From Deltaproteobacteria bacterium (lineage in GTDB: Bacteria > Desulfobacterota_D > UBA1144 > Nemesobacterales > UBA2774): 64,000 bases of DNA. The stretch lies in NCBI GenBank assembly GCA_040223695.1, contig JAVKFU010000015.1, forward strand, positions 632,692 through 696,691. Direction: 5' to 3'. The translations under genes and the position numbers were made by a program. Each line of letters opens with the position of its first letter. The first letter of the stretch is position 1. Shown here in pieces: positions 24,289 to 44,416 of the stretch. The notes below the pieces were generated by a model. That model ran no database searches. It saw only the letters and a list, made by a program, of their open reading frames with translations, and was not told where the DNA came from.

Positions 24289-24487
24289 TTGCTGGTTTTT
24301 ATGACGGTTATTTCTTCGATACTTAATAGTTAAGCAAGCCCTCCGACCGTGCGCTCGCAGGCAGTCAAAGAGTACCTACCCCGGCGCCTGAATCGAACCT
24401 ACAGCATAAATCACAATGCCGCTTGACTTAGAGTGCGCTCTAACTTGTATACTTTCAATTGATTCAGAAAAGACGAGGAATAATAGG

Positions 24488-24880
24488 ATGAATAAACCGT
24501 TAAAGATAAAAGACGTCTCGGAGTTAACGGGGCTAAGTAAACATACTCTCAGATACTATGAGAAAATAGGCCTGATTGACCAAGTAAAAAGGAGGGGTGA
24601 CGGCCATCGTTACTACTCCGAAAACGATGTAGCCTGGATAGAGTTCCTGAATAGACTCCGAGTAACGGGAATGCCTATAAGCCGGATGAAAACATTCGCA
24701 GATCTCAGGCGGAAAGGTAATTCAACAGCGGGGGAACGCAGGGAGATGCTCGAGAATTTTAAGGACGATTTATACCAAAGGCTGACTGATCTTAGTAAAC
24801 ATCTGGAGGCAATTGAGAAAAAGATAAAACATTACAAAGAACTTGAAAAAAAGACGAAGTCAATGAGGAGTAAGTCATGA
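24488..24880 (+). CDS. MerR family transcriptional regulator
   Basis: Start at MNKPLKIKDVSELTGLSKHTLRYYEKIGLI. HTH, then coiled-coil dimerisation helix. Confidence 0.85.
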   Translation: MNKPLKIKDVSELTGLSKHTLRYYEKIGLIDQVKRRGDGHRYYSENDVAWIEFLNRLRVTGMPISRMKTFADLRRKGNSTAGERREMLENFKDDLYQRLTDLSKHLEAIEKKIKHYKELEKKTKSMRSKS

Positions 24881-25269
24881 ACAAACAAAATGCAGTTGAA
24901 AAATTCTTCTCCGGAATCGGAGGGGGTAATATGGATGAGATTCTTGAAGCCGTTCATAAAGACGCGGTTTTTGAGGCACAGGGACCCGGTACAGTACCCA
25001 TTTACAATACATTTCACGGGAAAGAAGGAGTAACAGAGTTTGTGCGGATATTAGGTGAATTGTTCGATACAGAGGACTTTAAGGTGTATGTAACCGCCCC
25101 TCACGAAGATTATATTTTCGCCTACGGTCTGATGAAGCACCGGGTCAGGGCGACAGGAAAGATATTCGAGTGCGAATGGGCTCTGGTGTGTAAAATAAAG
25201 GAAGGTAAGATAATATCCTACAAGATGTTTGAGGATACCTTCGCGCTTGAGAGAGCATTTAAGGCTTAG
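24877..25269 (+). CDS. SnoaL-like/NTF2-like domain protein
   Basis: Start overlaps the merR stop by 4 nt (ATGA). About 130 aa with a ketosteroid-isomerase-like pattern. Confidence 0.6.
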   Translation: MNKQNAVEKFFSGIGGGNMDEILEAVHKDAVFEAQGPGTVPIYNTFHGKEGVTEFVRILGELFDTEDFKVYVTAPHEDYIFAYGLMKHRVRATGKIFECEWALVCKIKEGKIISYKMFEDTFALERAFKA

Positions 25270-25404
25270 CGCATGAGGCATTCGAAAAAAAGAGACAGAT
25301 ACAATATGCTTATAAGCAATTTAAGAACTCATACAGAGTAAAACCAGTATATAAACAAAAAATAGAGGATTGAATTAAATGTATCCTAGTTAATAATTTA
25401 TATT

Positions 25405-27006
25405 ATGTCTTCAGAAATAGTCAGATACATAAACAAAAAAGACGCCGAACTGCTTCATGAAATAGAACTAGCAGCTAACCAATCAGATCACGACACAGCT
25501 CTAAGATTAACAGAAGACAGACTCGCTAAACCTATCGATTTGTCTCGGCCATCAGAAAGACTACTTAAAGGATCACTAGCCGGTTGGCTAATTGACATAG
25601 GGACTGAATCCGGACAGGAACAAATTGTTAAAAAAGGTCTTTCTATCTTGGAGAATGAGGAGGCGGTCCTTCGTAAAAATGTAACTCAAGCCAGCTATGA
25701 TTATAATATTGGAAACGCTTATAGTTCATTATTTGACCTTAAAAAAAGTAAACCTGGTTTCAAATTAAATCCATCCGAAATCCAAGACATCGTTAAGAGT
25801 AAATCTCGATATTGGAGAGCTTACAAATCCCTACAAACACACGATAGAGCGTTCTGGGCAAAGTTGTGGGTCAACCTTGGTAATTGTTTGTTAAAATGCA
25901 ACCGAGTTGTAGAAGCGATTATATACTATGATGATGTAATTACTGAATATCCGAAATTTCCACAGGCAAATGCAAGCAGGGCTGATGCCTTACTCAAATT
26001 AAATGAAATATCAGATACCTATTCAATCAATTTACTCGCTCAAGCGATTGAGGGGTATTCAGTAGCAAGCGATTTTGCAGATACATTGTACAATCGTCAA
26101 GCTTGGCATATGCGCTCAGAATTACTGAAACAAAAATTATTAGAACATGGATACGACAGCAAAAATATAGAACATGAAACTTCCGAAACTGAATCAGAAC
26201 ATAATCAGCACTCAAAATATCGTAAATTTTGCTTAGAACAACATCTATCCCTTTCTGAGCATTCTATTTACTGTGGATGCGCTGGAGCTAGAAGTGATGA
26301 TCTCACAGTACCTAAATCATCCGGGCCAATAGGAGGTAATTTTGTTCCTAGAATGGAGTTCATATTAAATCGAGTTAAGTCAGAGTTTACATTTGCTAGA
26401 TTGATGTATTACCAAGCAGTACTTCCTTTAGAATCCGAATGGGACCTCTTGGAAGATGAAATCCGAATAACACAACTATTTGAGGATGAGATGCATGGCC
26501 CTCGCTCTGAAATGCTACGTCTGAGTTTTCGAAATTGTTTTGCAATACTTGATAAAATTGCAATGGCAATTTGCGAATTATTCGAATTAGCTCAGCCTAA
26601 GGAAGTATTATATTTTGAGAGCTTCTGGCGATCCCGATGGGAACGTATAAACCAAATCGATAATCCGGCAATAGTTGCCCTATACGCACTCGCTACAGAT
26701 TTAAATAGCAAAACAGGAGATTGGCCTGAGTTTAAAGAATGGCGTAATGCAATTGAACACAGAATCTTTTGTGTTCTTCAAAAGGAAAATTTTCACTCTG
26801 ACCCCTATTCTGTAGTTAATCAAAATGCAGGGGACCTAGTCGTTCCGTTAGATGTATTCCATCAGCGCGCTTTATTTTTATTAAGATTGACCCGTTCCGC
26901 TATATTCAGCTTTGTATTTTGTGTACGTTATGAAGGTTCTAAACTTACCGAAGGTGATCCTAGCAAAGCAATTACGCTAAGAGGCCGCAATGAGGAAAGC
27001 GGATAA
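25405..27006 (+). CDS. TPR-like + C-terminal HEPN-domain protein (LA2681-like; predicted RNase/defence protein)
   Basis: The C-terminal region contains RNAIEH, matching the HEPN Rx4-6H (RNxxxH) motif. The N-terminal about 250 aa are helical and TPR-like. The gene lies in a markedly AT-rich segment. Confidence 0.5.
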   Translation: MSSEIVRYINKKDAELLHEIELAANQSDHDTALRLTEDRLAKPIDLSRPSERLLKGSLAGWLIDIGTESGQEQIVKKGLSILENEEAVLRKNVTQASYDYNIGNAYSSLFDLKKSKPGFKLNPSEIQDIVKSKSRYWRAYKSLQTHDRAFWAKLWVNLGNCLLKCNRVVEAIIYYDDVITEYPKFPQANASRADALLKLNEISDTYSINLLAQAIEGYSVASDFADTLYNRQAWHMRSELLKQKLLEHGYDSKNIEHETSETESEHNQHSKYRKFCLEQHLSLSEHSIYCGCAGARSDDLTVPKSSGPIGGNFVPRMEFILNRVKSEFTFARLMYYQAVLPLESEWDLLEDEIRITQLFEDEMHGPRSEMLRLSFRNCFAILDKIAMAICELFELAQPKEVLYFESFWRSRWERINQIDNPAIVALYALATDLNSKTGDWPEFKEWRNAIEHRIFCVLQKENFHSDPYSVVNQNAGDLVVPLDVFHQRALFLLRLTRSAIFSFVFCVRYEGSKLTEGDPSKAITLRGRNEESG

Positions 27007-28584: not shown

Positions 28585-29190
28585 TTGGACATGGCGGAAA
28601 CAATAAATGGCAGGAATATAATTATGGAAAACACGCCGGAGACTGCTCAGGTATGGGAGGAATTTTCGGGGAACATCAGGTCGCATCTGCTCAGAAAGCT
28701 CAGGCGAAAGGACGACGCGGATGACTTGATGCAGGAGATTTTTATAAAAATACACACGCACATCGAATGCCTGAGGGATAAGAAAAAACTCACGTCCTGG
28801 ATATATACGATAGTCGAGAATACGCTCAACGACTATTACAGGAAGAACAGATATGATTCGGAATTTGACGAGAGCAGGGCCGCTACCAAAGATTCGGCAG
28901 AAGAAAACCCACTGCCCTGCATTACGCAATGCCTGAACGTATTCATAGACCGGTTGCCTATGAAGTACCGTGAGCCGCTCATGTTGAGCGATTTAGAGGG
29001 TAAAAAGCAGAAAGAAATAGCGCGGCGAATGGGTCTCTCCTATTCGGGGCTTAAGTCCAGAGTGCAGAGGGGTCGCCGGATGATAAAGGATATGTTCATC
29101 GAGTGCTGCAAGCTTTCTTTCGATGAAAAAGGGGTAATAAATAAAGAATATCAGGGGATGGAGAACTGTAAAATTTGCGGCGGGGCTTGA
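28585..29190 (+). CDS. ECF-type sigma-70 family sigma factor with Cys-rich C-terminal extension (SigZ-like)
   Basis: Region 2 reads DLMQEIFIKIH. Region 4 reads LSDLEGKKQKEIARRMGLSYSGLKSRVQRGRRMI. The C-terminus reads ECCKL...CKICGG. Confidence 0.75.
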   Translation: MDMAETINGRNIIMENTPETAQVWEEFSGNIRSHLLRKLRRKDDADDLMQEIFIKIHTHIECLRDKKKLTSWIYTIVENTLNDYYRKNRYDSEFDESRAATKDSAEENPLPCITQCLNVFIDRLPMKYREPLMLSDLEGKKQKEIARRMGLSYSGLKSRVQRGRRMIKDMFIECCKLSFDEKGVINKEYQGMENCKICGGA

Positions 29191-29324
29191 TCCGGGTCGG
29201 AAGGTTGTTTGGAATCCGGCTTTAGTGTAGCTTCAACCAAAATATTATCACTAACCATAGCTATATAAACAGCGTCTCATAGCGTTTATATTATAGATAA
29301 CTACACTAGAAAGGGGGCCGAGAA

Positions 29325-29687
29325 ATGATAGAACCAATCACGGGTCTTCCGGAAAATGTTCTCGGGTTTACGGCCAAGGGAAAAGTAACGGCCGAGGATT
29401 ATGAGAAAGTCCTCATACCGGAGGTTGAGAAAAAGCTGGCCAAATTTCCCAAAATTCGTTTCCTTTATTACATAGGGGACGATTTTGAGTCATACGAGGC
29501 CGGAGCGATGTGGGAAGACGCTAAGGTGGGTTTAGGTCATATCACGTCGTGGGAGAAGATAGCGATTGTGACCGATGTCGAGTGGATACGCGTTATGGGG
29601 AAAGTATTCGGCTTTGCAATGCCTGGGATAGTCCGTATTTTCAACAACGATGAGCTCAAGTCCGCAATTGAATGGGTGAGTGAGTAA
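29325..29687 (+). CDS. STAS/SpoIIAA-like (DUF3478-type) domain protein
   Basis: 120 aa. The pattern resembles SpoIIAA-like general stress proteins. RBS aagggggc lies upstream. Confidence 0.4.
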   Translation: MIEPITGLPENVLGFTAKGKVTAEDYEKVLIPEVEKKLAKFPKIRFLYYIGDDFESYEAGAMWEDAKVGLGHITSWEKIAIVTDVEWIRVMGKVFGFAMPGIVRIFNNDELKSAIEWVSE

Positions 29688-29700
29688 AAGTCCGTCCTCG

Positions 29701-29995
29701 ATTCAGAATGTTATTTTTTTACTTTTCCCGACATCACAGAATTGGTGTGAAGAAAATCGCTTGTTAATGCGTTAAGAAATATTTTAGGACGATTCCGAAC
29801 AAGCGAGGAATCGGACGCCCTACGCTATATACAATAATGTTCACATTCTTGCCTCAGCTAACCGCGAACTAATCAAGGAGGAATTAAAACATTTTAGCGT
29901 TAACATGAGATTTTTAGCCATATTCTGTGGAGTCGATGATTTTTGCTTCTTTTCATCAAGGAAAAGAAGAATCTATCTTTGCCTTTTAGTCGCTA
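29701..29995. repeat. modular composite intergenic repeat (modules B-C-D), copy 1
   Basis: Contains tcccgacatcacagaattggtgtgaagaaaat, ggacgattccgaacaagcgaggaatcggacgccc and ggaattaaaacattttagcgttaacatgagatttttagcc...gatttttgcttcttttcatcaaggaaaagaag. All three modules are shared with copies at about 34.96, 45.76 and 63.76 kb. Confidence 0.8.
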
Positions 29996-30091
29996 TTCTG
30001 AAACGTTGAAGCCACTGCAGCGATCCCGCCTACTCTTTCTTTCCCTCCCCCTCACAGGGGGAGGGTCAGGGCGGGGGTACTAACTCCCCCC

Positions 30092-33000
30092 TCAATTCAG
30101 TCTCTTCGCCCCCGCATCCTGTATCGCGCTCCTCAGTCTTCCGCCCTGCCGTATGCTCCTCACCAGCATGTTCTCTATCTCGGTCCCTATCGACGCCGCC
30201 GTAGCCCCCGAGCCTCCGTTCACGTTCACGTTGATATCCACATGCATCTCGCCTGAGCCTCCCTCGTCTCCGCCTATCCTCTCGACAAACCTGCTTAACA
30301 GTCCGTCCCCTGTGCCTATACTCTCACGGAACTGGTCCGCAAGCCCCGGCCCACTCGCCACAGCGCTCACGAACTGATTTATCAGCCCGGCCCTCAGCTG
30401 CACGAGCTGGTCCTCGGTCAGCACGGCCTCCCTTCCGTGCAGCACCGCAAGCGTCCCCCTGCCGAAGTCCCGTATCAACCCTCCCGTGCCCTCGGCGAAA
30501 CCCTGCACGTTCTGCAGCACCGACTCTATCGACCTCAGCACCACAAGCTGCTCGTCGTTTATACCCGCTATCGCCTGAAGTCCCTCGATCTCGTTATCGA
30601 ATCCGAACTCGCTCACTTCCTCGAGCTGCGCAAACCTCTCCTCCAGTATCCTTATATACTCCCCGCGTATGAACTCAAACAGCTCTATCAGCCTCTGCGA
30701 CGCCTGGAATGTATTCTGCGCCGTCTGCTCCCCTATGGCCGACAGCCTGTCCTGCAGCGCCTCTATCCGCGCGTCTATCCGCTCGATCTGCGCGTTCTGC
30801 TCCTGGGTCAGCCTCTCTATCTCGGCGTTTATCTCCTCTACTGACCGCCCCCTCGTCTCGGTCAGCTCCGCAAGCGCGTCGAGCCCTCCTGTTACCTGAT
30901 CGAATATAGCCACGAACTCGGGCGAATTCACTCCGAACGCGTCCCCGGCCACGTCGAACAGGGTTTTGAACGCGTCCTCGAGCCGGGCTACGATCTCGAC
31001 CTGCCTTTCGGGATCTACTGTACCGGCAAGCTCCTGCTGAAGCTGCGCAATATTCGACTGTAGCGCGTTTACCTGCTCCACTCCCGTGAGCACCGACTCC
31101 GGGCTGAACAGTATCGAGTCGAGCGTACGCCTTATGGATTCCGCAAGCGACGCGAACTCCTCCGCCAGCCTCAGCTCCTCGTTAAGCGCGTCTATACGCT
31201 CGTCAAACGCCTCCTGTATCCGCTCCTTCTCCTCGTTAAGCCCGTCTATTCTTCTCTCTATCGCCGCTCTTTGCGCCTCGGCAGCCCTTCGGGCCGCTTC
31301 CTGCCGCGCCTGAAAAGCCGCCTGCTCTTCGGCGAGCAATTGGTTCCCCAATCCCGCTAGGTCGTCCAGCAGCGCCTCCTGCTCCGAAAGCGACAGGTTC
31401 TCTATATTGTCCGTAAAGAAGCCCTGCACCTGCCCAATCGCCGTATTGAGGAACCCGGTCAGGTCCACTGAGCTTCCGCCGAATCCCGCGATAGTGCTGT
31501 TAAGCTGGCTTATCTTCCCAATCAGGCTCGATATGGAGCTTACGATTTCCGACGTCAGCGACAGTATCGCGTTTCTCAGCTCGACGTAGTTCTGCACCGT
31601 CTCCGGGTCAAGCTCTGCGTTCTTGATTAATTCCCCTAGCTCTTCCGTCAGTTGATCAATGGACGGCACGGCGTCGAATCCGAGCGTCCGGGAGAGCGAA
31701 TTTACGGAATTAATAGTCGTCCCTATCGCGTCATTTATATTCCCCTCTACTATGTTGAACGCATCGACAAAGGCGTTCAGATCGGCAAGCAGATCCTGCC
31801 CCACTGCCGCTCTCGCCTCCCTCGACCCTGCGCTCTCGAATTCCCGGAATCTCTCGTCGAGGAACGATGCCGCCGCATCGGGCAGTACCCCGAGCGACTC
31901 GAACATGGTCTGCAGGAATCCGTCCACCGCGAACAGGAACTTCGCCTGTATCTCCCCGTTTATAAGCTGATTGAATTTCTCCGCTATCTTCTTCCCCTTG
32001 GCGTCAAACTCGAAAAGCCTCTCCCCCGCGACTACCGTCTCCGTATCAAGCTCCGTATTCAGAAGCTCGTCCGTGAGCTTGTCCGCGAGGTCAGCCGGAA
32101 GCTTGTTGATAATATCCAGAAGGTTATTTACTGCCCCCTGTATCGCGTCGCCTAGAATCTCCTTTATCTTATCCGAGCCGCCAACGCCCAAACCGGCGCT
32201 TCGCTTTACGGATATGTCTATTATGTCGTTTATCAGGGTATCGGTGTCGAGCAGTTCGGATATAAACGCCGCCCTGCGCTCGCCTTCTTCTTTTATGCTG
32301 TCAAACTCTATGTCCAGACGAGGTGTCTTCTTGAATAAGCCGGATAGTAATGGGATGGCTAATGCCGCGGCAACGGCAACTGCACCGAGAATTGACAAAG
32401 CTCCACCTATCCCGCCAATACCTGCAAGAAATCCGGTTGATGGAAGCTCCCCGGCAGCTAAAGTCCCTACACTCACTCCACCGGTCAATCCTCCGACACC
32501 GAGACTTCCTGGCACAGCTGTAGCGGGTATTGTTGCAGCCGCTCCGCCTGCAAATCCAAATAGACCTGCAATTCCGGAACCGCCACCTAATATATCTCCA
32601 ATACTTCCGCCTATACCACCAACACCGCCAACAATATCTGCGCTTCCTCCAGCGCCTCTGGCACTTCCTGCCAACCCGAACAGTGCCCCAATACTTACCA
32701 CAATCTGCTTTGTGACAATCGCCGCAACAAGGTCGAGAAACGACCTGAGTATCGCCTCAAAAGCCTGCTTCACCAAGTCCTTTAAATCCTCAAACTTCCC
32801 GGTCAGCACGTTGAAAAATAAGTCGGAGAAATTCTGACTCATCTGGCTGAGTGTGTTAGCAAAGAAATCCGCTATGAGTTCACTATTCGACCCTACGGAT
32901 TCAACAAAATCCTCGAACCCCTGTTTTATTCCCTCAAAGAATCCGCCAGATTCATTCAGGTTTTCCACTCGCTCCGAAAACTCATCTAACCCCCCATCCG

Positions 33001-34027
33001 CCGCCGTTTGAGCCGCAGTATCTACACCCTCCACACTCGTGCTCATCGTGTCTATAGACTTGCTTGCTTGTCCGGTCTGGTCTATCACACCTTGAAGCCC
33101 GTCTTGACTTAGGTTGTTGGTAGATTCTGTAACATCCTCAGTAACACCGAGAAGTTCCCCCAACTCTTCTTTCGTATGCCCGAATATTACTGCCCCTTCC
33201 CCCGCGTTTTTAACTAAATCAACAAGAGATGTCGAAAATTCACCCTGCGCTGTAGTCCCTTCCTTCATCGCCGCAGACTGCTCCAAGGCCGATTCTCTAG
33301 CTTTATCGTATTGCAGACTAAGACCCTGTAATGTCAGACGGAGGGTCTTAAAACCCCTGTCTTGTTCATCAATTGCCCTTTGTAATTGCGTTGATACTGA
33401 TGGTCCAATAAATTCCTCTAAGCCACGACGTTGAAAATCCTCAACTTTTAGGTCAGGAATGTCAACCGTTAATTCAGGAATTTCTATACCCTCGATTTTA
33501 CCAAATTCTTCATTCAAATCACTCTGTAGCGCTTCTCTATATGCCTGCGCTAACTCTTCAATTGTTCTTCCTTTCGCAAGAAATTGTTCAAATTGTCTTT
33601 TAGCTATTTCTTGCAAATTACCTTCAATAGGTTCTGCTTTTTGGGGATTAACAAAAGGTCTTAGATCTACTGGCAAATCAACTATCACGCTTTCATTAGT
33701 GAACGGTTCCAGAATATCTTTAATAAGCAAGTTGATATTATGACCAATTTCCGCAGCCTGTTCACCACCAATCAACTTTGCAGCGTTCGTTAAAATATTT
33801 CCAAATGGAGAATTTGTTTTAAAAACTCTGTCAAATGCAGATTCCGCTTGTTTCATTGACGATTCAACATCTTTATTAAACTTGAAAAAAGTAGATTCTG
33901 ATGTTTTAGTAATAAACTCAAATCCGTCTCTAAATTCTTCGAATGTACTATTAGCTGTCTTTCCTAATTGTATTAATTGCTCATCTTCTACAATAAACTT
34001 GACCGTAATTTCATTTATCTCTGCCAT
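30092..34027 (-). CDS. giant helical protein, phage tail tape measure protein-like
   Basis: 1311 aa with no signal peptide. Long coiled-coil segments. A central Gly-rich hydrophobic block, GGIGGSIGDILGGGSGIAGLFGFAGGAAA...ALAIPLLSGLF, is typical of tape measure proteins. An AT-rich promoter region lies upstream. Confidence 0.5.
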   Translation of the reverse strand: MAEINEITVKFIVEDEQLIQLGKTANSTFEEFRDGFEFITKTSESTFFKFNKDVESSMKQAESAFDRVFKTNSPFGNILTNAAKLIGGEQAAEIGHNINLLIKDILEPFTNESVIVDLPVDLRPFVNPQKAEPIEGNLQEIAKRQFEQFLAKGRTIEELAQAYREALQSDLNEEFGKIEGIEIPELTVDIPDLKVEDFQRRGLEEFIGPSVSTQLQRAIDEQDRGFKTLRLTLQGLSLQYDKARESALEQSAAMKEGTTAQGEFSTSLVDLVKNAGEGAVIFGHTKEELGELLGVTEDVTESTNNLSQDGLQGVIDQTGQASKSIDTMSTSVEGVDTAAQTAADGGLDEFSERVENLNESGGFFEGIKQGFEDFVESVGSNSELIADFFANTLSQMSQNFSDLFFNVLTGKFEDLKDLVKQAFEAILRSFLDLVAAIVTKQIVVSIGALFGLAGSARGAGGSADIVGGVGGIGGSIGDILGGGSGIAGLFGFAGGAAATIPATAVPGSLGVGGLTGGVSVGTLAAGELPSTGFLAGIGGIGGALSILGAVAVAAALAIPLLSGLFKKTPRLDIEFDSIKEEGERRAAFISELLDTDTLINDIIDISVKRSAGLGVGGSDKIKEILGDAIQGAVNNLLDIINKLPADLADKLTDELLNTELDTETVVAGERLFEFDAKGKKIAEKFNQLINGEIQAKFLFAVDGFLQTMFESLGVLPDAAASFLDERFREFESAGSREARAAVGQDLLADLNAFVDAFNIVEGNINDAIGTTINSVNSLSRTLGFDAVPSIDQLTEELGELIKNAELDPETVQNYVELRNAILSLTSEIVSSISSLIGKISQLNSTIAGFGGSSVDLTGFLNTAIGQVQGFFTDNIENLSLSEQEALLDDLAGLGNQLLAEEQAAFQARQEAARRAAEAQRAAIERRIDGLNEEKERIQEAFDERIDALNEELRLAEEFASLAESIRRTLDSILFSPESVLTGVEQVNALQSNIAQLQQELAGTVDPERQVEIVARLEDAFKTLFDVAGDAFGVNSPEFVAIFDQVTGGLDALAELTETRGRSVEEINAEIERLTQEQNAQIERIDARIEALQDRLSAIGEQTAQNTFQASQRLIELFEFIRGEYIRILEERFAQLEEVSEFGFDNEIEGLQAIAGINDEQLVVLRSIESVLQNVQGFAEGTGGLIRDFGRGTLAVLHGREAVLTEDQLVQLRAGLINQFVSAVASGPGLADQFRESIGTGDGLLSRFVERIGGDEGGSGEMHVDINVNVNGGSGATAASIGTEIENMLVRSIRQGGRLRSAIQDAGAKRLN

Positions 34028-34217: not shown

Positions 34218-34544
34218 GTGATGAAAGAAATCTGCTCCAATTGTCTTTACACCGGTGAGTCCGGTCATAGCGGAAGAAATGCTTGCAGGTTCCCTTTGGC
34301 GGGCCTGCTATTGGGAGTGGGTGTAAACGGTATTACAAGCGTAATACCGGATAGTGAAACTTCCGGTTCCACGCTCGTACTCGTAATAATTACTATTGCT
34401 TGTTTATTTACCGCCTTCTATTTACTTTACAGGTGTATCAATAAGAGCAGGAGAGCATGTCCCAAGTGTAACTATGGCGATATGATTGAGATGAATACCC
34501 CGGAAGCGGACAAACTAGTGGAGCAACATAGCCTGAAAAATTAG
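34218..34544 (+). CDS. split zinc-ribbon membrane protein, paralog 1 of 4
   Basis: N-terminal CSNC, two TM helices, C-terminal CPKCNYGDMIEMNTPEADKLVEQHSL. Confidence 0.55.
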   Translation: MMKEICSNCLYTGESGHSGRNACRFPLAGLLLGVGVNGITSVIPDSETSGSTLVLVIITIACLFTAFYLLYRCINKSRRACPKCNYGDMIEMNTPEADKLVEQHSLKN

Positions 34545-34566: not shown

Positions 34567-34914
34567 ATGCAAAAACTTTGCCCAGAATGTAACTATATTG
34601 GATACGAATCCCGTGGACAGAAATCACTTTTAATATGGGGAATAGCTTTAACTATTTGGGGAGCAATAACACTACTTGGCGCACTTATGCTTTATTCCTT
34701 TTCCGTTAGGATACTTGCGTCAGTAATTTGGCTCTCATTTGGTGTTGTTACCTTATATTACTACATTCATTACCCAAACATATGCCCAAACTGCAAGCAG
34801 AAAAAAACCATGATCCCTCTCGACACTCCCAAAGCCCAGGCCCTAATTAAAGATCACAACCTGACTATCCCGCAAGAAACATCACAACAGTCCAGCCCCA
34901 AAACCACTCAATAA
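34567..34914 (+). CDS. split zinc-ribbon membrane protein, paralog 2 of 4
   Basis: MQKLCPECNYIGY..., two TM helices, ...CPNCKQKKTMIPLDTPKAQALIKDHNLT. Confidence 0.55.
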   Translation: MQKLCPECNYIGYESRGQKSLLIWGIALTIWGAITLLGALMLYSFSVRILASVIWLSFGVVTLYYYIHYPNICPNCKQKKTMIPLDTPKAQALIKDHNLTIPQETSQQSSPKTTQ

Positions 34915-34959: not shown

Positions 34960-35245
34960 ATTAGAAATCTCGTCTTTGTATTACCCTTCTCGACATTCAC
35001 GGAATTGGCGTTAAGAAAATAGAATATTGAGGCGTAAAAATCTTTCCGGGACGATTTCGAGCTAGCGAGGAATTGGACGCCCTTTCCTATAAGAAATAAT
35101 GTAATTAGTCTCGCTTCACTAAACCACGATTCTAATCAGGGTTGAATTAAAAGATTTTAGCCGAGATAGCCCATTTTTAGCCACATTCCGTGCAGTCGGT
35201 GATTTTTGCTTCTTTTCATCTAGGAAAAGAAGAAAGATGATTTAT
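34960..35245. repeat. modular composite intergenic repeat, copy 2 (full length)
   Basis: About 85% identical over about 280 bp to the 45.76-kb copy. Confidence 0.8.
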
Positions 35246-35655
35246 CTTTTTCCCGCCCAGCCTGAACCTTTCGAAGAATGTCATTTAGAGCGCAGCCGAG
35301 AAATCTATTCATTTATCCTTTAGAGTCTGTCATTCTGAACCCTGTCCTGAACTCGTTTCAGGATCATTTCAGAATCTCGATTTTCATCTTTCAATCCTTT
35401 AATTCCCTCCTTAGTAAAAGGAAACGAATGCGAACGTGTGAGCATTTAGACGCCTTTAGTTAAAAGCACTTATGCCCATTATCTACCGGCACATAAACTC
35501 TTGGAATAAAATAGGGTGGATTTAAAATACAATATAAAAACCTCACCTACGCCGCTAGCCTATACTCCACTTCCTCTACATTAACCTTATTATCATATAA
35601 CTGAACGACCACTCTCCCTTCATCCTCAAAATCCCAACTGTGTTATAATTTCCTG

Positions 35656-36030
35656 ATGCAAAAACTCTGCACCAATTGCAATTTCATCGGCAAAGGTAAG
35701 CACGGCCTCTTGTCCGGCAATATCTATGTCGGAATAATAGAAGTAGTTGTGGCGGTAATTATACTCTTTACAGGCCAGAAGCTCCTTCAGTCTTTTATAT
35801 ACGGAGCCGTGGTCGCGGCAATAGTAGCAATAGCCGGACTGATAAATATTATGGACTCGTTCTCGGAGGGCCGGCTCTGCCCTAACTGCGGCAAGGACAA
35901 GATGATCCCGCTCGACACTCCCAAAGCCCAGGTCCTCATCCAAGAACACAACCTCACAGTCGGCGATAATGTCCCCCAAAACACGCAGAATGACCAAAAA
36001 CCAGACCAGTTTGAAGCCCCCAAATCTTAA
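35656..36030 (+). CDS. split zinc-ribbon membrane protein, paralog 3 of 4
   Basis: MQKLCTNCNFIGKG..., two TM helices, ...CPNCGKDKMIPLDTPKAQVLIQEHNLT. Confidence 0.55.
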   Translation: MQKLCTNCNFIGKGKHGLLSGNIYVGIIEVVVAVIILFTGQKLLQSFIYGAVVAAIVAIAGLINIMDSFSEGRLCPNCGKDKMIPLDTPKAQVLIQEHNLTVGDNVPQNTQNDQKPDQFEAPKS

Positions 36031-36214: not shown

Positions 36215-36395
36215 CCTTTCCCGACATTCACAGAATTGGCGTTAAGAAAACAGATTATCGAGGCGTGAAAATCTTTTAGGAATGGGGCTGAATTAACAGA
36301 TTTTAGCCGAGATGGTCTGTTTTTAGCCAAATTCTGTTAAGTCGATGATTTTTGCTTCTTTTTATCAAGAAAAAGAAGATATAATTTTTTGCTTT
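36215..36395. repeat. modular composite repeat, partial copy (modules B+D)
   Basis: Contains cccgacattcacagaattggcgttaagaaaacag...gatttttgcttctttttatcaagaaaaagaag. Confidence 0.7.
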
Positions 36396-36522: not shown

Positions 36523-36930
36523 GTGAAAAAACTCTGCACAAACTGCTTCTACATCGGATACGAAGACAGGTCCACACACGGGAGCTTCAAGACCGAGTCC
36601 ATCCTCTGGGCGGTTGCCTTTGTCCTCGCATTCACGGGCGTTTTCGAGTCCGACCTATGGCTGCCGGCAACCATAACATTCGCACTCGCCTTTTTCTATA
36701 CTCTGACCATCTTCAGGGTAAAGATATGCGTCTGCCCAAGGTGCGGCCGCGACTCCATGATCCCGCTCAAAACCCCCAAGGCGGAGGCTATAATTCATGA
36801 GCACCACCTCGTGATGCCCAGCGAATTCAAAAATCCTGCGCGCACGATCTTCGGCCTCACATTCCGCGACGCGCTCCTCATCCTCACCACCATCCTTATA
36901 ACCGTCATGCTCTACAACCACTTCACCTAA
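36523..36930 (+). CDS. split zinc-ribbon membrane protein, paralog 4 of 4 (GTG start)
   Basis: VKKLCTNCFYIGY..., TM helices, ...CPRCGRDSMIPLKTPKAEAIIHEHHL. An extra C-terminal TM helix is present. Confidence 0.5.
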   Translation: MKKLCTNCFYIGYEDRSTHGSFKTESILWAVAFVLAFTGVFESDLWLPATITFALAFFYTLTIFRVKICVCPRCGRDSMIPLKTPKAEAIIHEHHLVMPSEFKNPARTIFGLTFRDALLILTTILITVMLYNHFT

Positions 36931-36939
36931 CTACTCATT

Positions 36940-37900
36940 CCCACTTAATCCTTTTTCTCCCTCTCTCTTGAGGGAGAGGGTAAGGGTGAGGGGGCACCTT
37001 CTGTTAAGTCGGCGATTTTTACTTCCTTTCATCAAGGAAAAGAAGATATAATTTTTTGACTTACCCTTGTCATTGCGAGCGCAGCGCGGCAATCCCAAAT
37101 CCGTCATGCTGAACTTGTTTCAGCATCTAACCCTTTGCCTTTCCCCTTCCGTCATTCTGAATTCATTTCAGAATCTAGAATTTTGCTTTTGCCTCCCTTT
37201 CACCCCTCCATAATCTCAAGAATCCTATTGACTCCATACCCCCAAATCATCTATAATAATTACGGAGGTAATTATGACAAGCGAGTGTGACAGCCCACCA
37301 GACAGGTTGGTCGAAAATTCGTGAGATCCGAAAATGGTGAGTACTTAAACAATCACCATAAATAATAGCTAAAACTAGCTATTGCTTAAAAAAAGCATAC
37401 AAACCAAAAAGGGAGCCACAGTGCTCCCTTTTCCATTTCTAGATATAGTAAACATTATTTGTCATTACAAACGAATGTGAGAAATCTAACCCTTGCTTTT
37501 TCTTCGTCATCGCAAACCGCAAAGTGGAACGACAACGTCGCATTATCGAAGTTTGTCATGCTGAACTACGATTTCGAGTAAGTAAGGAATCGGGTCCATT
37601 GACAAATTGCAACCGAGTAAGTATTCCCCTATCATGCCAGTCCAAACCCAAAACTTTCAGCATCTAGCCTTTCGTCTTGTCCATTCTGACATTCACATAA
37701 TTAGCGTCAAGAAAATCTTATGTTGATGCGTCAAAATGTTTTGGGCCGGGGCGGAATTAAAACATTTTAGCGTTAACATGAGATTTTTAGCAATATTATG
37801 TGCAGTCGGTGATTTTTGCTTCTTTTCATCTAGGAAAAGAAGAAAGTCTTTATCTTTTAGTCATTGCGAGTGGAGCATATTATGCGTAGCGCGGCAATCT
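36940..37900. repeat. about 1-kb non-coding cluster of stacked repeat units
   Basis: Contains the gagggagagggtaagggtgagggggc hairpin, a D-module end at 37.00-37.05 kb, gtcattgcgagcgcagcgcggcaatc, gtcatgctgaa, cattctgaattcatttcagaatc, a gtcatgctgaactacgatttcgag...gaggaatcgggtcc C-type unit, and a B+D composite at 37.69-37.87 kb. Confidence 0.75.
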
Positions 37901-37910
37901 AATCTTTTCA

Positions 37911-38240
37911 TTAAGAGCCAGCAATACCCCTACGGCGCCCGAGAGCCTCAATCCCTTCCCCCTTGGCGCCCCTTTTCATTTTCCTCTCCTGAGACTTCAG
38001 GGCAAACTCTCTGAACGCCTCATCCACGGCAATCACTACCCGAAACGCCCTCATCTTCGGATGCCCCTCGAACTCTAGCTTCTCCAGGTTATTCCATATC
38101 TCGGAATGCACCAGTGTGCCTACGGTCATCCCCTGCCCGTAGCGCTGAGACTGGCATAGCTCCCATAGAGATACCCACTCCCGCTGGTGCTGGGGGAGGT
38201 TCCGTATAAATCCTTCCGTCTCGTCCCCCGCCTTTTTCAA
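37911..38240 (-). CDS. downstream -1-frame ORF of a G/GT-like pair (candidate frameshift extension)
   Basis: Its frame is open upstream to about 38476, so it overlaps the last about 52 codons of the 38321..38890 ORF in the -1 frame. No conventional start or RBS of its own. Basic sequence. Confidence 0.4.
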   Translation of the reverse strand: MKKAGDETEGFIRNLPQHQREWVSLWELCQSQRYGQGMTVGTLVHSEIWNNLEKLEFEGHPKMRAFRVVIAVDEAFREFALKSQERKMKRGAKGEGIEALGRRRGIAGS

Positions 38241-38320
38241 TATGCGAAGCTCGTCCCTGTCGTTCTTTTCAAACTTGAGCCTGTTCTTCCGCCTGAGTTT
38301 CCTCTTTTCTTCGAGCTGAC

Positions 38321-38890
38321 TTACCCTGCGTCTGATTGAGTCTGCGCGGTACCTTCTTTTTTCCCCTTTGAAGCGGACTTCGAATCCCTCGTATATCCGC
38401 TCGAAGTACTCCCTGACTCTTCCAAAAAATTTTCCTCTTCTTTCTTCTCCTCCTTCGTGACCTTGCCGGCTATGAGCTCATAGCTCGACCTGAAGTTGCT
38501 AAGCAGGAAAGAGGACTTACAGAACTCATTGTAGAGCCATTCTTTAGTGTCCTTGTCGTATAGCACCCGCTCGCCCTTGTCGGTAAGCCCTGTAATGTCC
38601 TGTATGAGGTTATATACCAGGAACTTCGCGGCGCGCTTCGGGTCTCCTCCGAGAATCTTGAAGCTCCTGTCCTCGACAGTCAGGTCTTGCGTAAGGTCCC
38701 TTATCTGAGTAAGCCTCGCCACTGTCGGGTACGGACACTTGAACCCCACCTCGCGCCAGCCCTCGTCGTAACCCACCCACTCGCCTTTCTCGTCCTGGTA
38801 AGCGGGCCAGTCCTCATCCTCTATATCCCTGTAGGGATATATCGTCACATAATTTGATACATGTTTGGTCAAACTCTTAATTTCAGGCAT
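38321..38890 (-). CDS. acidic protein, phage tail assembly chaperone (gpG)-like candidate
   Basis: 189 aa, acidic (EDEDWPAYQDEKGEWVGYDEGW). Its 3' end holds T TTT TTG (about 38422-38428) and GGGGAAAAAAG (about 38355-38365), both inside the overlap with the downstream -1 ORF. Confidence 0.4.
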   Translation of the reverse strand: MPEIKSLTKHVSNYVTIYPYRDIEDEDWPAYQDEKGEWVGYDEGWREVGFKCPYPTVARLTQIRDLTQDLTVEDRSFKILGGDPKRAAKFLVYNLIQDITGLTDKGERVLYDKDTKEWLYNEFCKSSFLLSNFRSSYELIAGKVTKEEKKEEENFLEESGSTSSGYTRDSKSASKGKKEGTAQTQSDAG

Positions 38891-39190: not shown

Positions 39191-40666
39191 TTAAACAACG
39201 GCCTCAACCATATCCTCAACTGTTGGCTGGTTGTTCTTCACCGTAACTGTAATGTCCGTATTCGGCGCGCTGCTGGTATCAAGCCTGCCAAGGAAGCTCT
39301 TCTCATCCGTCACCGGGTCCTTCGAGCTCACGCCCGGATGCGGACTCCCCTCGAACTTGGCTTTGGGCACGCTCATTGTCACCTGATGGCTGTTGTCACC
39401 GATATAGGTCCATATAAAGTCGAGCTGCGTCTCTGTTCCCGCAACTGTCTTCTCAGCGAATTGCTGGCTTCCGTACTGATAAGTGAATGAGCCGCTTACA
39501 GATCCTTCCCCGGGGGTGATCGCGCCCTTGATCGGCGACCCTACGACGAAGTTACCCTGTATGGTATTCTCGATCACGAGACTCAGGTTTTCAAACTGGT
39601 TTGTGGTCTGCTCCACACTGTCCACCTGCACGCTCGATTCCCAATGTGCGTAAGGAATGTTTTCAATCGAGGCCGGAGTCCCGAATATGTTCTCTGACAG
39701 TATTTGAAATGCCTTCCCTACTACGTTCATATTGAGCTGCGGAAGGTCGGTCGGGTCCACGTTAAGAGTAAGATTGCTTACCTTGTTCCCCCTGATAAGC
39801 ATGAGCGATTCAATATCGGTAAACCTCAGAAGGAAACTGATACCCTCGGGAATGGTGGAGCCTCTATAAATCGTATGTGTGAAGGGTTTAATTACTTCAT
39901 CGCACGCCGCCCCGTTAGAGTGAGCCTTCCTGAGCCCGTTGGGATGAGCAGCCGAGTCCAGCGTAAGCTGCCCCGCAGCCGTGCTGCCTATCTTTACAAT
40001 CTCTGCGTCATTTCCCGTGCTTAACTGAGCAAACTCACCGGCTGCGAAACCAACTTCGGATGTCACTGATACCGTTGTATCTCCGGCGGAAGCCGCTGCC
40101 GACAAAGTCGTACTTGCCCCCGCTGTTGACGTTCCGACTGTGGTGTAATCACTATTCAAGGCGTGTAAGTAAAACAGCCCCACTGTCGCTATATCGAGCT
40201 CAACAGTCATATCCGCTCCTGTGTCATAGTTTCCCTCACGGAAGTTTGAAAGTACACGCGAGCCGGAGAGCGCCTGCGACCTCTGCAGATCTCTTCCGCC
40301 GGACGGTGTGAAGGACCTCACGTTACCTAGCTTGAACCAGTTATTAGCCGGGTCTACCTCAACCACAGCCTCCCCCGATTCATGCCTGTAGTTTATCTTT
40401 GTGTTCGCGTCGAGACTCACCGTCGTGCCAGACACGTAACCTGCATCCACCTTTACGAATTCCATATTGTTGTCGTTCCCGACCTTAAGAATATCCCCCG
40501 CCGCGATATTAGTATCGCTCGCTACCGTAACGCTAGTCGCTCCGGGGTTAACAGCTGCGGCAAGCGTAGTGGACGCTCCGCCCCCGACCGCGGCTGACGG
40601 CGTCACGCCGTTTACCTGTTCAATCTTGTACCAAATCTCCGCACTTGAGCCTGAAGCCTGTGCCAT
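39191..40666 (-). CDS. hypothetical structural protein with two tandem ~100-aa N-terminal domains; possible phage major tail protein
   Basis: 491 aa, no signal peptide. Thr/Ser/Ala-rich and beta-rich. An internal duplication is visible (ASTTLAAAV...TSVTVAS...AAGDILKVGND / ASTTLSAAASAGDTTVSVTSEVGFAAGEFAQLSTGND). The phage assignment rests on gene-order context only. Confidence 0.3.
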   Translation of the reverse strand: MAQASGSSAEIWYKIEQVNGVTPSAAVGGGASTTLAAAVNPGATSVTVASDTNIAAGDILKVGNDNNMEFVKVDAGYVSGTTVSLDANTKINYRHESGEAVVEVDPANNWFKLGNVRSFTPSGGRDLQRSQALSGSRVLSNFREGNYDTGADMTVELDIATVGLFYLHALNSDYTTVGTSTAGASTTLSAAASAGDTTVSVTSEVGFAAGEFAQLSTGNDAEIVKIGSTAAGQLTLDSAAHPNGLRKAHSNGAACDEVIKPFTHTIYRGSTIPEGISFLLRFTDIESLMLIRGNKVSNLTLNVDPTDLPQLNMNVVGKAFQILSENIFGTPASIENIPYAHWESSVQVDSVEQTTNQFENLSLVIENTIQGNFVVGSPIKGAITPGEGSVSGSFTYQYGSQQFAEKTVAGTETQLDFIWTYIGDNSHQVTMSVPKAKFEGSPHPGVSSKDPVTDEKSFLGRLDTSSAPNTDITVTVKNNQPTVEDMVEAVV

Positions 40667-40803: not shown

Positions 40804-41931
40804 CTAGTAATTGATAATCTTCCCGTTCTCATCCCATCCTGTAGTCCTCTGATACTGGCTTTGAAAATCATTACGCCAACTGTCGTTCCACTTCCAGTCG
40901 CCGCTTTTTATCTTCCACGTGTTATAGTCCACACTGTTGTCAGCCGATTCGGCATCGAAAACTTCCAGCGCAGCTACACCGGGGTTAGCGCTCTGGAAAT
41001 AGTTATTTTGAATCTCATTATTCGAACTCTTCCATATGCCCAGATGAGTATGGCTCGTATCGTCTGTTGAAGGATACTTTTCAAGTATAAATTTATTATT
41101 GGTAATTCTAGAATTTCGCACATGATGATATATGGCCATTCCCCAGGAATTATCCTCGATCAGGTTTTTTTCGATATCCAGATTTTCTATCCAGGTTGAG
41201 CATTTCGAGCCGTTCATCTGAATCCCCCTGCCCCCGTGATTTCGTATTACGTTACCGCGAATAGCAACTCCGGAAATCCCCTTGCACTCGAAATCAGATA
41301 GATATATGCCGTGGCAGTGTTTGGGACTCGAGCCCCGCCAGTCCTTGTTGTAGCACTCCCCTTTTCCAGTCCCGTTCGACTCTATTATGTTATTTTCGAT
41401 TGTTATATTATCAGTCGATATGATCAGGATTCCCTGATACGTGTTTCGGTGAATTTTATTATTCCGTATGATATTATTGCCTTTGTAAAGCTTTACCCCG
41501 TCCCAGCCTTTCATTACTTCAAAACCCTGAAACACGATCCATTCGGCGTCGATCTCGACCCTGTCGCCTTCGCCCTTTCCCGGAACGATAATAGGCTTAT
41601 GTCCGGGGTAGGCTTCGATTGTAATCGGTCTCAGACGTGTCCCGCTGTTTTTGACAACAATTTTTCCGGTATAGACACCGCCTATTACCCTGATAATATC
41701 ACCCGGGACTGCTGAATCGACAGCTCCCTGTATGGTTGTGTAATCGCCGTTAGCGCCCGGCGCAACTATCTTCACAGATGGCAAGCGCGCACCTGCTGAT
41801 TCGACGCAATCAGCGCAGCTGGAAGGATCGGAGAGAGTGTAAACGCCTCCCACCACAGCCGGGGCCTGGTCGATAAAATATAGAGGTAAAATTGCAGTCA
41901 AGACAACTGACAGAATTGCCGTCGATTTCAT
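40804..41931 (-). CDS. secreted right-handed parallel beta-helix repeat protein (pectate-lyase-fold; possible depolymerase/tailspike-like)
   Basis: Signal peptide. Repeated NNxIxxN / GxxIxxN beta-helix coils: NNIIRNNKIHRN, ITIENNIIESNG, IRGNVIRNHGG. Confidence 0.6.
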   Translation of the reverse strand: MKSTAILSVVLTAILPLYFIDQAPAVVGGVYTLSDPSSCADCVESAGARLPSVKIVAPGANGDYTTIQGAVDSAVPGDIIRVIGGVYTGKIVVKNSGTRLRPITIEAYPGHKPIIVPGKGEGDRVEIDAEWIVFQGFEVMKGWDGVKLYKGNNIIRNNKIHRNTYQGILIISTDNITIENNIIESNGTGKGECYNKDWRGSSPKHCHGIYLSDFECKGISGVAIRGNVIRNHGGRGIQMNGSKCSTWIENLDIEKNLIEDNSWGMAIYHHVRNSRITNNKFILEKYPSTDDTSHTHLGIWKSSNNEIQNNYFQSANPGVAALEVFDAESADNSVDYNTWKIKSGDWKWNDSWRNDFQSQYQRTTGWDENGKIINY

Positions 41932-42204: not shown

Positions 42205-42906
42205 TTAATAAATAGTCCTCCAGGCATAAGCATCCGCCGCGTCCTTTGCGCAAACTTCAATAGTATCCTTTACTCCCGCATTACCTTCTACCATCCAAAA
42301 TTTGCCTCTTTCAGAAACGCTGCAAGTTGGTTTAACAACAGCCCCTCCGTTATCAGAAATTTTAATCCCCCCCGCTTCAACGGAAACCAGGCTCTTTGCA
42401 TAAATACTATCGGGTCTATTGGCGCCGGTTTTCCCAATATCGCCGCTTGCGTCAGTATTAAATATAAAATCACCATCGTAAATTCTAACTCCAATAACAC
42501 GAGAAATACTAGCTACAACAACTCCGTTACCCCAAAACTCAATATTGTTAACACCATTCATTTTAATTCCAGTATCGTCATCTTCGCCTACCAGTCTCTG
42601 GTCAAATATAATTATGTTGTTAGCACCACCTTGGCCTATAACTGTCTGGTCACTTGTATTGACTGAAAGTAAATTTATATCTGCTGTATTAGCTGCGTTC
42701 CTAGCTTTTATAAGAGTAGAGTTATTAGGACCTTTCAGTGAAGCAGAACCAGTTAGGTTGATATCGCCCGCCATACTCCCGCCGGATTTCGGCAGGACAT
42801 TGGAGGGAATTATAATGTCTGCTTCAATAATATCCTCATTGATCTGCGATTGAGCATAACTTGAAATAAGAATTATAAATACGATAACGAGTATAAATTT
42901 TCTCAT
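42205..42906 (-). CDS. secreted protein with tail-fibre-like SGGSMAGDINL motif
   Basis: Signal peptide. LPKSGGSMAGDINLTGS resembles the GG[ST]M[TA]G motif of phage tail fibre proteins. Confidence 0.4.
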   Translation of the reverse strand: MRKFILVIVFIILISSYAQSQINEDIIEADIIIPSNVLPKSGGSMAGDINLTGSASLKGPNNSTLIKARNAANTADINLLSVNTSDQTVIGQGGANNIIIFDQRLVGEDDDTGIKMNGVNNIEFWGNGVVVASISRVIGVRIYDGDFIFNTDASGDIGKTGANRPDSIYAKSLVSVEAGGIKISDNGGAVVKPTCSVSERGKFWMVEGNAGVKDTIEVCAKDAADAYAWRTIY

Positions 42907-42950
42907 GGATTTCTTTTTTACCTCAATTCACCATTCATTCCGAATGTCCC

Positions 42951-44386: not shown

Positions 44387-44416
44387 TTAACAAAACTCCC
44401 TTAATCTATTGGGAAA

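Follow-up and report, generated by a model that had tools for sequence, protein, structure and literature searches.

In long-tailed phages the gene for the tape measure protein (TMP) is preceded by tail assembly chaperones in the G/GT arrangement, and both mosaic TMP genes and morons lodged in the slot between the chaperone and TMP genes are already known. Among anti-phage systems that interfere with DNA entry or with tail assembly (HK97 gp15, Ltp, Tab and SNIPE), the TMP is coming to light as a main target. In HK97 the chaperone–TMP slot is taken by gene 15, a moron whose product is a small exclusion protein of the inner membrane with tail-dependent action (PMC3594210), the TMP is the target of Tab (PMC10884400), and it is likewise the target of SNIPE, with escape mutations in its N-terminal and central regions (PMC13190303). 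Here we analyze a window of 64,000 nucleotides (the whole stretch examined, from contig JAVKFU010000015.1 of a Deltaproteobacteria bacterium assembly), in which an intact open reading frame (ORF) of 1311 aa with an ATG start occupies positions 30092–34027 of the minus strand. We read this ORF, with a probability of roughly 0.8, as the TMP gene of a decayed, siphovirus-like prophage whose host genome is of Dadabacteria/Thermodesulfobacteriota type, made mosaic by cassette exchange. The 5′ module of the gene and the small membrane-protein genes that adjoin it appear to be swapped between related phages.

Since direct scans of the query gave only sub-threshold matches, it is the gene context that decides the identity of the ORF. 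A tail tube gene (39191–40666, minus strand) encodes 491 aa and matches PF18906 Phage_tube_2 (E 2.1e-17; 64 bits, cut-off 27) and phrog_290 (E 8e-28). Between it and the TMP gene lies the gene for a 189-aa G-like tail assembly chaperone (38321–38890, minus strand), which is 83–91% identical to its counterparts in most related loci and 68% identical in L016 (L-numbers denote related loci and P-numbers individual proteins). The 3′ end of this ORF is overlapped by a T-like ORF in the −1 frame relative to G (37911–38477, minus strand; the frame is open from 38477), 81% identical to its counterpart in L001. A slippery heptamer, A_AAT_TTT (38426–38432, minus strand), stands in register with the G frame, and GAA AAT TTT was kept in all nine sequences in which it could be located, those of the window and eight loci. 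Judged by these features, the predicted G-like/T-like pair has the classic G/GT arrangement. The TMP gene follows the tube gene and this frameshift pair, separated from them only by four intercalated zinc-ribbon genes on the opposite strand. We found the same order of tube, G, T, small opposite-strand genes and TMP in L006, L007, L008 and L009–L016, and five of the related contigs are classed as viral by IMG/VR. Upstream of the tube gene, a beta-helix tailspike-like protein (40804–41931, minus strand; Beta_helix E 2.5e-16) is 34% identical to the product of the gene in the same position in L006 and L007.

A word-indexed search of 5.8 billion clusters returned 22 homologues of the 1311-aa protein, from metagenome-assembled genomes labeled Dadabacteria, Thermodesulfobacteriota or “delta-proteobacterium” or from metagenomes, and they lie in a tail-gene neighborhood wherever context was retrieved. 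Homology to established TMPs runs through these family members. In a family alignment of 23 sequences, 11 match TMP PHROGs (phrog_1272 or phrog_167), with several members’ TMP PHROG matches spanning 1e-16 to 1e-37 and the best E values reaching 3e-37 for phrog_58 and 2e-35 for phrog_1272; Tape_meas_lam_C is matched on the invariant core by 11 of the 23, with a best E of 3.5e-4. The original prediction, made from the letters of the window alone, had taken the ORF for a phage or tailocin TMP, and the tail-gene context together with the TMP matches of family members supports that interpretation. Like siphovirus TMPs of the lambda gpH type (Tape_meas_lam_C and PHROGs 58, 1272, 167 and 4070), the protein has its slot after the tube and frameshifted G/GT chaperones, exceeds 1000 aa, has helical, coiled-coil character with an internal Gly-rich hydrophobic segment, and has relatives that match these families directly. 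Unlike them, it is parted from its chaperones by an opposite-strand gene array, falls below all curated cut-offs and finds no match in deposited phage genomes. As far as its homologues indicate, the conserved C-terminal 700 aa form a narrow lineage-specific family.

The ORF itself exists as it had been described. Its N-terminus, MAEINEITVKFIVEDEQ, is acidic and has no hydrophobic leader on inspection by eye, in agreement with the reported absence of a signal peptide, a reading made by eye rather than with a SignalP-type predictor. Five segments can be told apart, all on the minus strand. The N-terminal module (aa 1 to ~290; 33158–34027) is variable, nearly orphan and low in GC content at third codon positions (GC3 0.28). 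The most conserved core (aa 358–450; 32678–32956; SGGFFEGIKQGF...QIVVSIG) is weakly Tape_meas_lam_C-like, and all 40 invariant columns of the family alignment fall within aa 363–451. The block that follows (aa 451–565; 32333–32677), Gly-rich, uncharged, hydrophobic and variable in sequence, had been placed at about aa 430–560 and is real: Gly makes up 30–40% and charged residues 2–6% of aa 451–550, and uncharged runs span aa 479–526 and aa 528–565. Beyond it lies a “post” segment of discrete allelic types (aa 566 to ~800; 31628–32332; KKTPRLD to NINDAIG and beyond), and last comes a conserved C-terminal part (aa 801–1311; 30092–31627) of backbone-like composition, with a GC3 of 0.71–0.78 and 70–73% DNA identity to relatives. 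The pervasive coiled-coil propensity claimed for the protein agrees with the PDB matches of the family profile, which are profile matches and not a direct coiled-coil prediction; they are mainly to coiled coils (SMC, dynein stalk, methyl-accepting chemotaxis proteins [MCP], designed coiled coils), with a best E of 2e-6, and the single “Tape measure” chain among them (E 7e-4) lies inside the noise and is uninformative for membership. The query also gives a coiled-coil-type match to Mu Gam. By composition and by these coiled-coil-type matches, the protein is long and probably mostly helical, carries a Gly-rich, putatively membrane-active segment and has no apparent signal peptide, as expected of a TMP. 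By general TMP biology, such a helical protein would set tail length during assembly and be ejected at infection, when the Gly-rich hydrophobic block would help to form the DNA passage through the inner membrane.

The original prediction also held that this single ORF spans a compositional break at about 32.8 kb. We found that the break is real, although it is stepwise rather than a single break at that position. In 300-nt windows, GC is 0.55–0.63 at 30.0–31.5 kb, 0.49–0.59 at 31.5–32.8 kb, 0.45–0.50 at 32.7–33.3 kb and 0.29–0.39 at 33.3–34.2 kb, with 0.38–0.42 in the first two zinc-ribbon genes, and the main rise in GC3 comes at codons ~200–350 (33.0–33.4 kb). GC3 is 0.28 in codons 1–290 versus 0.73 in codons 601–1311 (chi-square 166, p 5e-38), and at four-fold sites it is 0.30 in the 5′ part versus 0.74–0.77 in the 3′ part, while the Gly-rich block forms a second low-GC3 island (four-fold GC3 0.33). 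Across the gene, GC3 of 200-codon segments ranges from 0.23 to 0.78, compared with a spread of at most 0.13 in seven other long ORFs of the window. The sliding-window and codon-usage profile is not uniform, so the claim of a break survives the check that could have overturned it. Because the Gly/Ala-rich block, which could have raised GC, is itself low in GC3, the shift is an effect at synonymous positions and not an artefact of amino-acid composition. The TMP gene is a chimera: beyond about aa 600 its 3′ part resembles the high-GC3 phage backbone in composition, and its 5′ third, the divergent promoter region and the adjoining zinc-ribbon gene or genes constitute one low-GC3 accessory cassette.

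This mosaic is a recurrent, family-wide cassette architecture and not a one-off of this genome. All 10 TMP-family genes examined, from five other loci, show the GC3 gradient, with 0.20–0.42 in the first 100–300 codons and 0.75–0.90 in the last 500–600, and truncated TMP copies that precede some full-length genes show the same rise, reaching 0.60–0.80 at their ends. Backbone genes of the relatives (tube, G, T, 265-aa protein, Gp80, large virion protein) have a GC3 of 0.70–0.88, and the small genes adjoining each TMP start 0.30–0.50.

The proposal that modules of different origin have recombined is supported by three kinds of evidence. First, the flanks of L006 and L007 are 96–97% identical, and the two loci are unrelated from the proximal small genes through the 5′ 2.3–2.8 kb of the TMP gene, with high identity returning ~35 residues beyond the motif NVNDxIGQTI. 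Second, an exhaustive search of 1.84 billion representative proteins found six distant relatives of aa 1–290, among which P0030 and P0034 carry a different core (GKKGLSSLGVFAGNIATNIA...) and P0035 carries the family core. (A word-indexed search with aa 1–300 gave no match despite an identical deposited protein overlapping aa 254–300, which marks a limit to that search’s sensitivity.) Third, DNA homology of the window’s TMP gene to any relative begins at about nt 33136 (aa ~298), where GC3 rises; aa 1 to ~120 show no similarity to family members, and from there to aa ~286 identity is 27–39%. In addition, the 600-nt “post” segment occurs in discrete types, and the type that one phage has in a truncated copy recurs in the full-length gene of a different phage. 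The type found in the window has 75–87% DNA identity to the full-length copy of L004 and the truncated copy of L008 and ~60% to other types, and the N-module of a truncated copy in L014 has 94–95% DNA identity to that of the full-length gene in L007. N-module similarity also tracks, to a modest degree, how alike the adjacent small genes are (Spearman rho 0.33, Mantel p 0.007). From this architecture, homologous recombination within the conserved core and “post” segments would be the means of cassette exchange.

The four small genes in the window’s chaperone–TMP slot all lie on the plus strand. Gene 1 (34218–34544; GC3 0.48) is divergent from the TMP gene across a 190-nt spacer, and in its product CxxC...CPxC motifs flank hydrophobic helices. 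Gene 2 (34567–34914; GC3 0.39) found seven homologues in the word-indexed search of 5.8 billion clusters, and gene 3 (35656–36030) shares the motif plan. This plan consists of an N-terminal MxKLCxxCxYIG knuckle, two hydrophobic, predicted transmembrane (TM) helices, a CPxC knuckle and the sequence MIPLDTPKAxxLIxxHNL. Gene 4 (36523–36930; GC3 0.75) encodes 135 aa with an extra C-terminal TM segment. Unlike the diverse genes 1–3, it is a conserved, backbone-type copy, with 68–69% identity to the small gene that directly follows the chaperone in L001/L008 and L004. GC3 is 0.39–0.59 in three of the four genes, compared with 0.60–0.75 in backbone genes. An AlphaFold2 model of the gene 2 product has a low mean pLDDT (64.5) and places helices at residues 18–39 and 45–68 and a C-terminal helix at 88–97. 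The four proteins have no convincing family in Pfam (E ≤ 1) or PHROGs (E ≤ 0.1), and the relatives carry three to seven genes of this type each. In relatives, the slot further encodes small proteins of secreted or lipoprotein-like type that do not belong to the zinc-ribbon family (L004 1287–1613, L006 7622–7951 and L008 9603–9920, minus strand in locus coordinates), which bear a resemblance to Ltp-type exclusion lipoproteins.

The closest described counterpart of the zinc-ribbon genes is HK97 gene 15. As there, a small inner-membrane protein gene, here with two predicted TM helices, sits in the chaperone–TMP slot, differs in composition from the backbone and presumably forms its own transcription unit. 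The block to DNA entry that gp15 imposes depends on the tail region of the incoming phage (PMC3594210). The differences are that the zinc-ribbon proteins have no sequence similarity to gp15/YebO, that they carry split zinc ribbons around a two-helix membrane hairpin, that their genes lie on the opposite strand in arrays of three to seven paralogues linked to an exchangeable TMP 5′ module, and that their function is predicted only. By this analogy, the zinc-ribbon proteins would most likely be prophage-expressed inner-membrane proteins that, like gp15, block TMP-dependent DNA entry by related phages. An exclusion role would explain why the zinc-ribbon genes travel with the TMP module, and turnover of that module would be the counter-move to exclusion, so that the swapping of the TMP front end and small genes may reflect a contest over the blocking of DNA injection. 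A scan of 29.5–38.5 kb for promoters and terminators gave counts at or below shuffle expectation, which speak neither for nor against independent transcription of the small genes.

Several observations weigh against the reading of this element as a mosaic phage TMP locus with exclusion genes. The query reaches Tape_meas_lam_C of Pfam only at aa 364–429 with 15.7 bits (cut-off 23; E 0.016) and phrog_4070, a TMP family, only below threshold (E 0.089), and it matches none of the TMP models in NCBIfam at E ≤ 1. The query thus exceeds the threshold of no curated TMP model (Pfam PF10145, PF09718 and PF20155, TIGR01760 and TIGR02675), the three that the original prediction had named for a check (PF10145, TIGR01760 and TIGR02675) included; it is the relatives that match TMP families. 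Moreover, the strong PHROG matches of relatives lie mostly in N-modules that the query does not share, and few reach the shared region (P0005 aa 702–1219, P0008 aa 526–1196), so the homology to classical TMPs is partly transitive. A tblastn search with the TMP against 50,697 deposited phage genomes gave no match, and the tube protein has only 20–27% identity to the tail subunits of ~60-kb E. coli siphoviruses; the phage lineage is an uncultured one. No capsid, portal or terminase gene was found in any flank examined, including a PHROG scan of the relatives, and a complete phage is not demonstrated even for these relatives. The covariation of N-modules and small genes is what physical linkage alone would give. 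For the exclusion role, neither gp15/YebO nor any other exclusion or defense family was found in Pfam or PHROGs (PADLOC was not searched), and a sigma-70 promoter scan around the small genes found 16 sites against 11.2 ± 3.0, which is not above chance. Finally, the low GC3 of the variable parts could have arisen in place rather than by import.

This last point is the core of the rival explanation that survives best, in which the GC gradient was made in place: the N-terminal part, which evolves fast and seldom recombines, drifts toward AT under the common mutational bias, and the conserved part, with its frequent recombination between related phages, is kept GC-rich at third positions by GC-biased gene conversion or codon selection. 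Such drift would account for a gradient that is present in every family member and truncated copy whatever the N-module, and for a GC3 that tracks conservation so closely that even the variable Gly-rich block within the gene is low, as are the variable fiber-like genes of the phage. Ongoing conversion is also shown by patches of 85–93% identity between copies in the same genome, compared with ~70–75% between genomes. However, segment swaps are seen directly between near-identical backbones, and the relatives of the window’s N-module sit on different cores, so import does occur. We regard an origin of the gradient in place as possible though somewhat unlikely; as drift and import are not mutually exclusive, drift probably contributes to a gradient that we read as the mark of cassette exchange.

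Cassette exchange would leave displaced, 3′-truncated TMP copies upstream, each with a characteristic junction, and such copies are common among the relatives. One to three co-oriented partial TMP genes precede the full-length gene in L004, L005, L008/L001, L009, L010, L014 and further metagenome contigs. They are intact ORFs of 556–1004 aa in which the conserved core is joined to a variable N-module that differs from copy to copy, and most lie just downstream of a divergent small gene. All of them terminate in EE(W/M/V/C)EY(R/Q/M)(L/M/Q)AA and a stop codon. This ending is specified by a conserved junction in the DNA, GAGTAYAGGYTGGCGGCGTGAGG, after which comes an ATATATA box; the junction closes truncated paralogues in L004, L005, L008, L009, L010, L014 and L020–L022. 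It is attached after NVNDxIGQTI, after FDAKGKK or at several places in the Gly-rich block, and in all 17 distinct cases on TMP-like sequence, with at least 4–5 truncation points, it is in frame. One truncated copy has an additional in-frame deletion. P0030, the distant protein with a window-type N-module, ends in ...EQKFQLAA. In the window, a six-frame motif search found a single scar that a truncated copy left when it was deleted, ...NVEEVEYRLAA plus stop codon, at 35547–35576 (minus strand) between zinc-ribbon genes 2 and 3, and deletion down to this scar would have left the four zinc-ribbon genes and one full-length TMP gene that remain. In shared regions, truncated and full-length copies differ mostly at synonymous sites (dN/dS 0.02–0.2), which is no proof of selection after truncation.

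The E. coli ssrA tag ends in ...ENYALAA, and at the protein level the EYRLAA tail resembles the C-terminal part of such tags. We favor, speculatively and from the peptide sequence, the idea that the LAA tail could be an in-frame degron or docking peptide under selection. Three sources of the junction were considered and rejected. An ARAGORN scan of the window and of ten related loci detected neither a tmRNA nor a tRNA, which speaks against a tmRNA origin; T chaperone ORFs end differently; and the regions 3′ of full-length TMP genes show no comparable similarity. An Rfam scan of the window gave no match. Across IMG/VR and JGI metagenomes the junction motif is confined to this phage group, with the exception of one occurrence in L025 (Ga0272449_1000028). 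There, at ~5774–5796 of a 227-kb contig, it ends a 30-codon ORF (...YFEYRLAA) that has no recognizable TMP upstream, and it may be another scar or a chance match.

These features would also fit a more elaborate possibility, that the chaperone–TMP segment is a diversification locus built of units of a zinc-ribbon gene plus a TMP 5′ portion. Truncated copies would then be no debris but a standing reservoir of modules for the N-terminus and the membrane-active region, their ssrA-like tail (EE.EYRLAA or ...KFQLAA) would consign their products to ClpXP-type proteolysis, and the zinc-ribbon proteins would be module-specific injection blockers. Recombination in the core would fuse the N-module of any truncated copy to the single C-terminal part, and the locus would encode a lock-and-key contest between exclusion and TMP escape. 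The proposal is compatible with the data, because the junctions are all in frame, the truncated ORFs are intact, dN/dS is 0.02–0.2 and modules are shared between phages; taken whole, we consider it tentative and rather unlikely. Among known systems, a parallel to the TMP arrays may be seen in the orphan toxin–immunity arrays of Rhs and contact-dependent inhibition (CDI) systems. In both cases a large gene combines a conserved part with a variable end, and this end moves together with a small partner gene; partial copies that have been displaced keep a conserved stretch and pile up beside the full-length gene, and orphan modules of one genome appear in the full-length gene of another. The TMP system is a mirror image, with its variation at the N-terminus and its orphans on the upstream side; the TMP is also a virion protein and not a toxin, and its orphans end in a fixed in-frame peptide.

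The window holds only a reduced form of this cassette-array architecture, and the element in it is a prophage remnant, because the downstream virion and lysis genes of the relatives are missing. Phage-like sequence extends from ~29.7 to 47.2 kb, and DNA homology to the relatives ends at about nt 30087, just beyond the TMP stop codon. Relatives carry, 3′ of the TMP gene, a 265-aa gene, an amidase, a Gp80/phrog_240 protein, a virion structural protein of 1086–1244 aa, a GH19-type endolysin and a holin-like gene, and the genes 3′ of TMP in L001, L004 and L005 have no counterpart in the 64-kb window. The distal-tail gene set that the original prediction had looked to for confirmation is present in the relatives and absent from the window, where no distal tail or tail tip genes follow the TMP gene, and we detected no head, packaging or lysis genes within 29.7–47.2 kb. 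Without distal-tail, virion and lysis genes the element is unable to build tails alone. Its TMP, tube and chaperone ORFs are nevertheless intact, and the TMP gene is probably a recent relic.

Alternatively, the element could be a domesticated tail-only device, such as an F-type tailocin, that still uses its TMP. This would fit with the intact tube, G/T and TMP ORFs, which have the same lengths as in the relatives, and with head and packaging genes having gone undetected in the window and in related flanks, an absence compatible with a tailocin. A self-sufficient tail set with a lysis cassette, which a tailocin of this type should have, is lacking: the window has no 265-aa protein, Gp80-like protein, 1220-aa virion protein, endolysin or holin, and so no tip or baseplate and no means of lysis, and the relatives are classed as viral contigs and carry phrog_240, labeled “head protein.” We consider a tailocin quite improbable.

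A further alternative concerns the gene model on which the break depends. If only the last 1058 codons were genic, as in the NCBI annotation, the first 253 would be untranslated and the break would be an artefact of ORF extension. The deposited protein (P0001) does begin at M254 and has 1058 aa, omitting 253 codons (33269–34027), and the L004 orthologue is likewise deposited from an internal Met (P0003, 1026 aa; L004 7254–8219 omitted). Against such a short gene, a run of 253 sense codons at ~33–34% GC has a chance probability of ~3e-9, as estimated from base composition, the periodicity GC1 > GC2 > GC3 is present, and family N-termini share a pattern of M-x-[ED] followed by alternating hydrophobic residues. 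The ATG at 34027 is itself supported, because alignments with the independent N-module homologues P0030, P0033 and P0034 begin at residue 3 of the homologue and at residues 3–6 of the query. A short gene is accordingly very improbable, and it is likely that automatic start-site annotation of such mosaic genes cuts off AT-rich N-terminal modules systematically. The lesson for annotation is that pipelines drop these modules, at a cost of 253 codons in the deposited protein here.

The remaining alternative, a chromosomal coiled-coil membrane protein of chemoreceptor-like or SMC-like type, has in its favor that SMC, dynein stalk, MCP and designed coiled coils predominate in the PDB profile search, and is effectively refuted by context, as those matches are weak (best E 2e-6) and of generic coiled-coil type, the Pfam scan (E ≤ 1) found no MCPsignal, HAMP or SMC domain of the kind by which the original prediction might have been overturned, and the 22 homologues lie in tail-gene neighborhoods wherever context was retrieved.

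The TMP gene is of a known kind, from an unstudied phage lineage. What is new, as far as we found, is the combination of opposite-strand zinc-ribbon arrays, cassette exchange of the TMP 5′ module and tandem truncated paralogues with an in-frame ...LAA tail, for which a literature search yielded no description. A cassette-exchanged TMP front end with small membrane genes at the gp15 slot would be a natural record of an entry-blocking contest, and the lineage, which sits in a phylum without a cultured phage–host system, provides testable pairs of modules and partners. The in-frame ...LAA tail on displaced copies hints at silencing of potentially poisonous partial structural proteins. If the reading in terms of reservoir, degron and exclusion were true, the locus would carry more weight than the reduced form in the window does alone.

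A further element that recurs at cassette boundaries is a repeat, R, in the form of a stem-loop, CTTCTTTTC-N6-GAAAAGAAGCAAAAATCA, followed by a promoter-like motif, TTGCTA...TAAAAT. It has eight matches in the window against 0 expected, all on the minus strand (29937–29969, 35200–35232, 36346–36378, 37013–37045, 37810–37842, 45987–46019, 47172–47204 and 58036–58068), and two longer stretches, 29719–29991 and 34981–35254, constitute an extended version. In two copies a C:G pair of the stem has become T:A, a compensatory change, and a doubly compensated version occurs in L005. Copies are found past the stop codons of T and TMP, in the gaps that separate the small genes and at the outer border of the phage-like region, with one copy 11 kb beyond that region. 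Repeat R may be a module boundary similar to the promoter/stem-loop cassettes known as PeSLs, or else a promoter, a terminator, an operator or a recombination substrate, and from the architecture it may help in the gain and loss of cassette units. PeSLs flank shuffled modules in T4-like phages and are proposed to mediate modular shuffling (PMC2839356, PMC4122927). The likeness lies in a stem-loop plus promoter-like motif at module boundaries, all in one orientation; repeat R has no sequence relation to PeSLs.

Other genes lie around and within the remnant. Directly where the homology to phage ends, and in convergent orientation to the TMP gene, 28585–29687 (plus strand) encodes an extracytoplasmic function-type sigma factor (Sigma70_r2/r4_2) and a SpoIIAA-like STAS protein, which may belong to the flanking host DNA or may be cargo that took the place of the distal tail genes. 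At 24416–27006 (plus strand), a low-GC island (GC3 0.29–0.46) carries a MerR-family regulator and a 533-aa protein with TPR plus LA2681-like HEPN domains; lying a few kilobases from the remnant, the latter may be a defense or toxin gene. Upstream of the tailspike-like gene, at 42205–45109 (minus strand), are four ORFs of ~230–240 aa with a GC3 of 0.28–0.42. Three of them begin with signal-peptide-like sequence, two are related as paralogues with 31% identity, and one has a match to phrog_2106, “minor tail protein.” Because these four ORFs have no counterpart in related loci, they form a further accessory block of this element that is variable and AT-rich.

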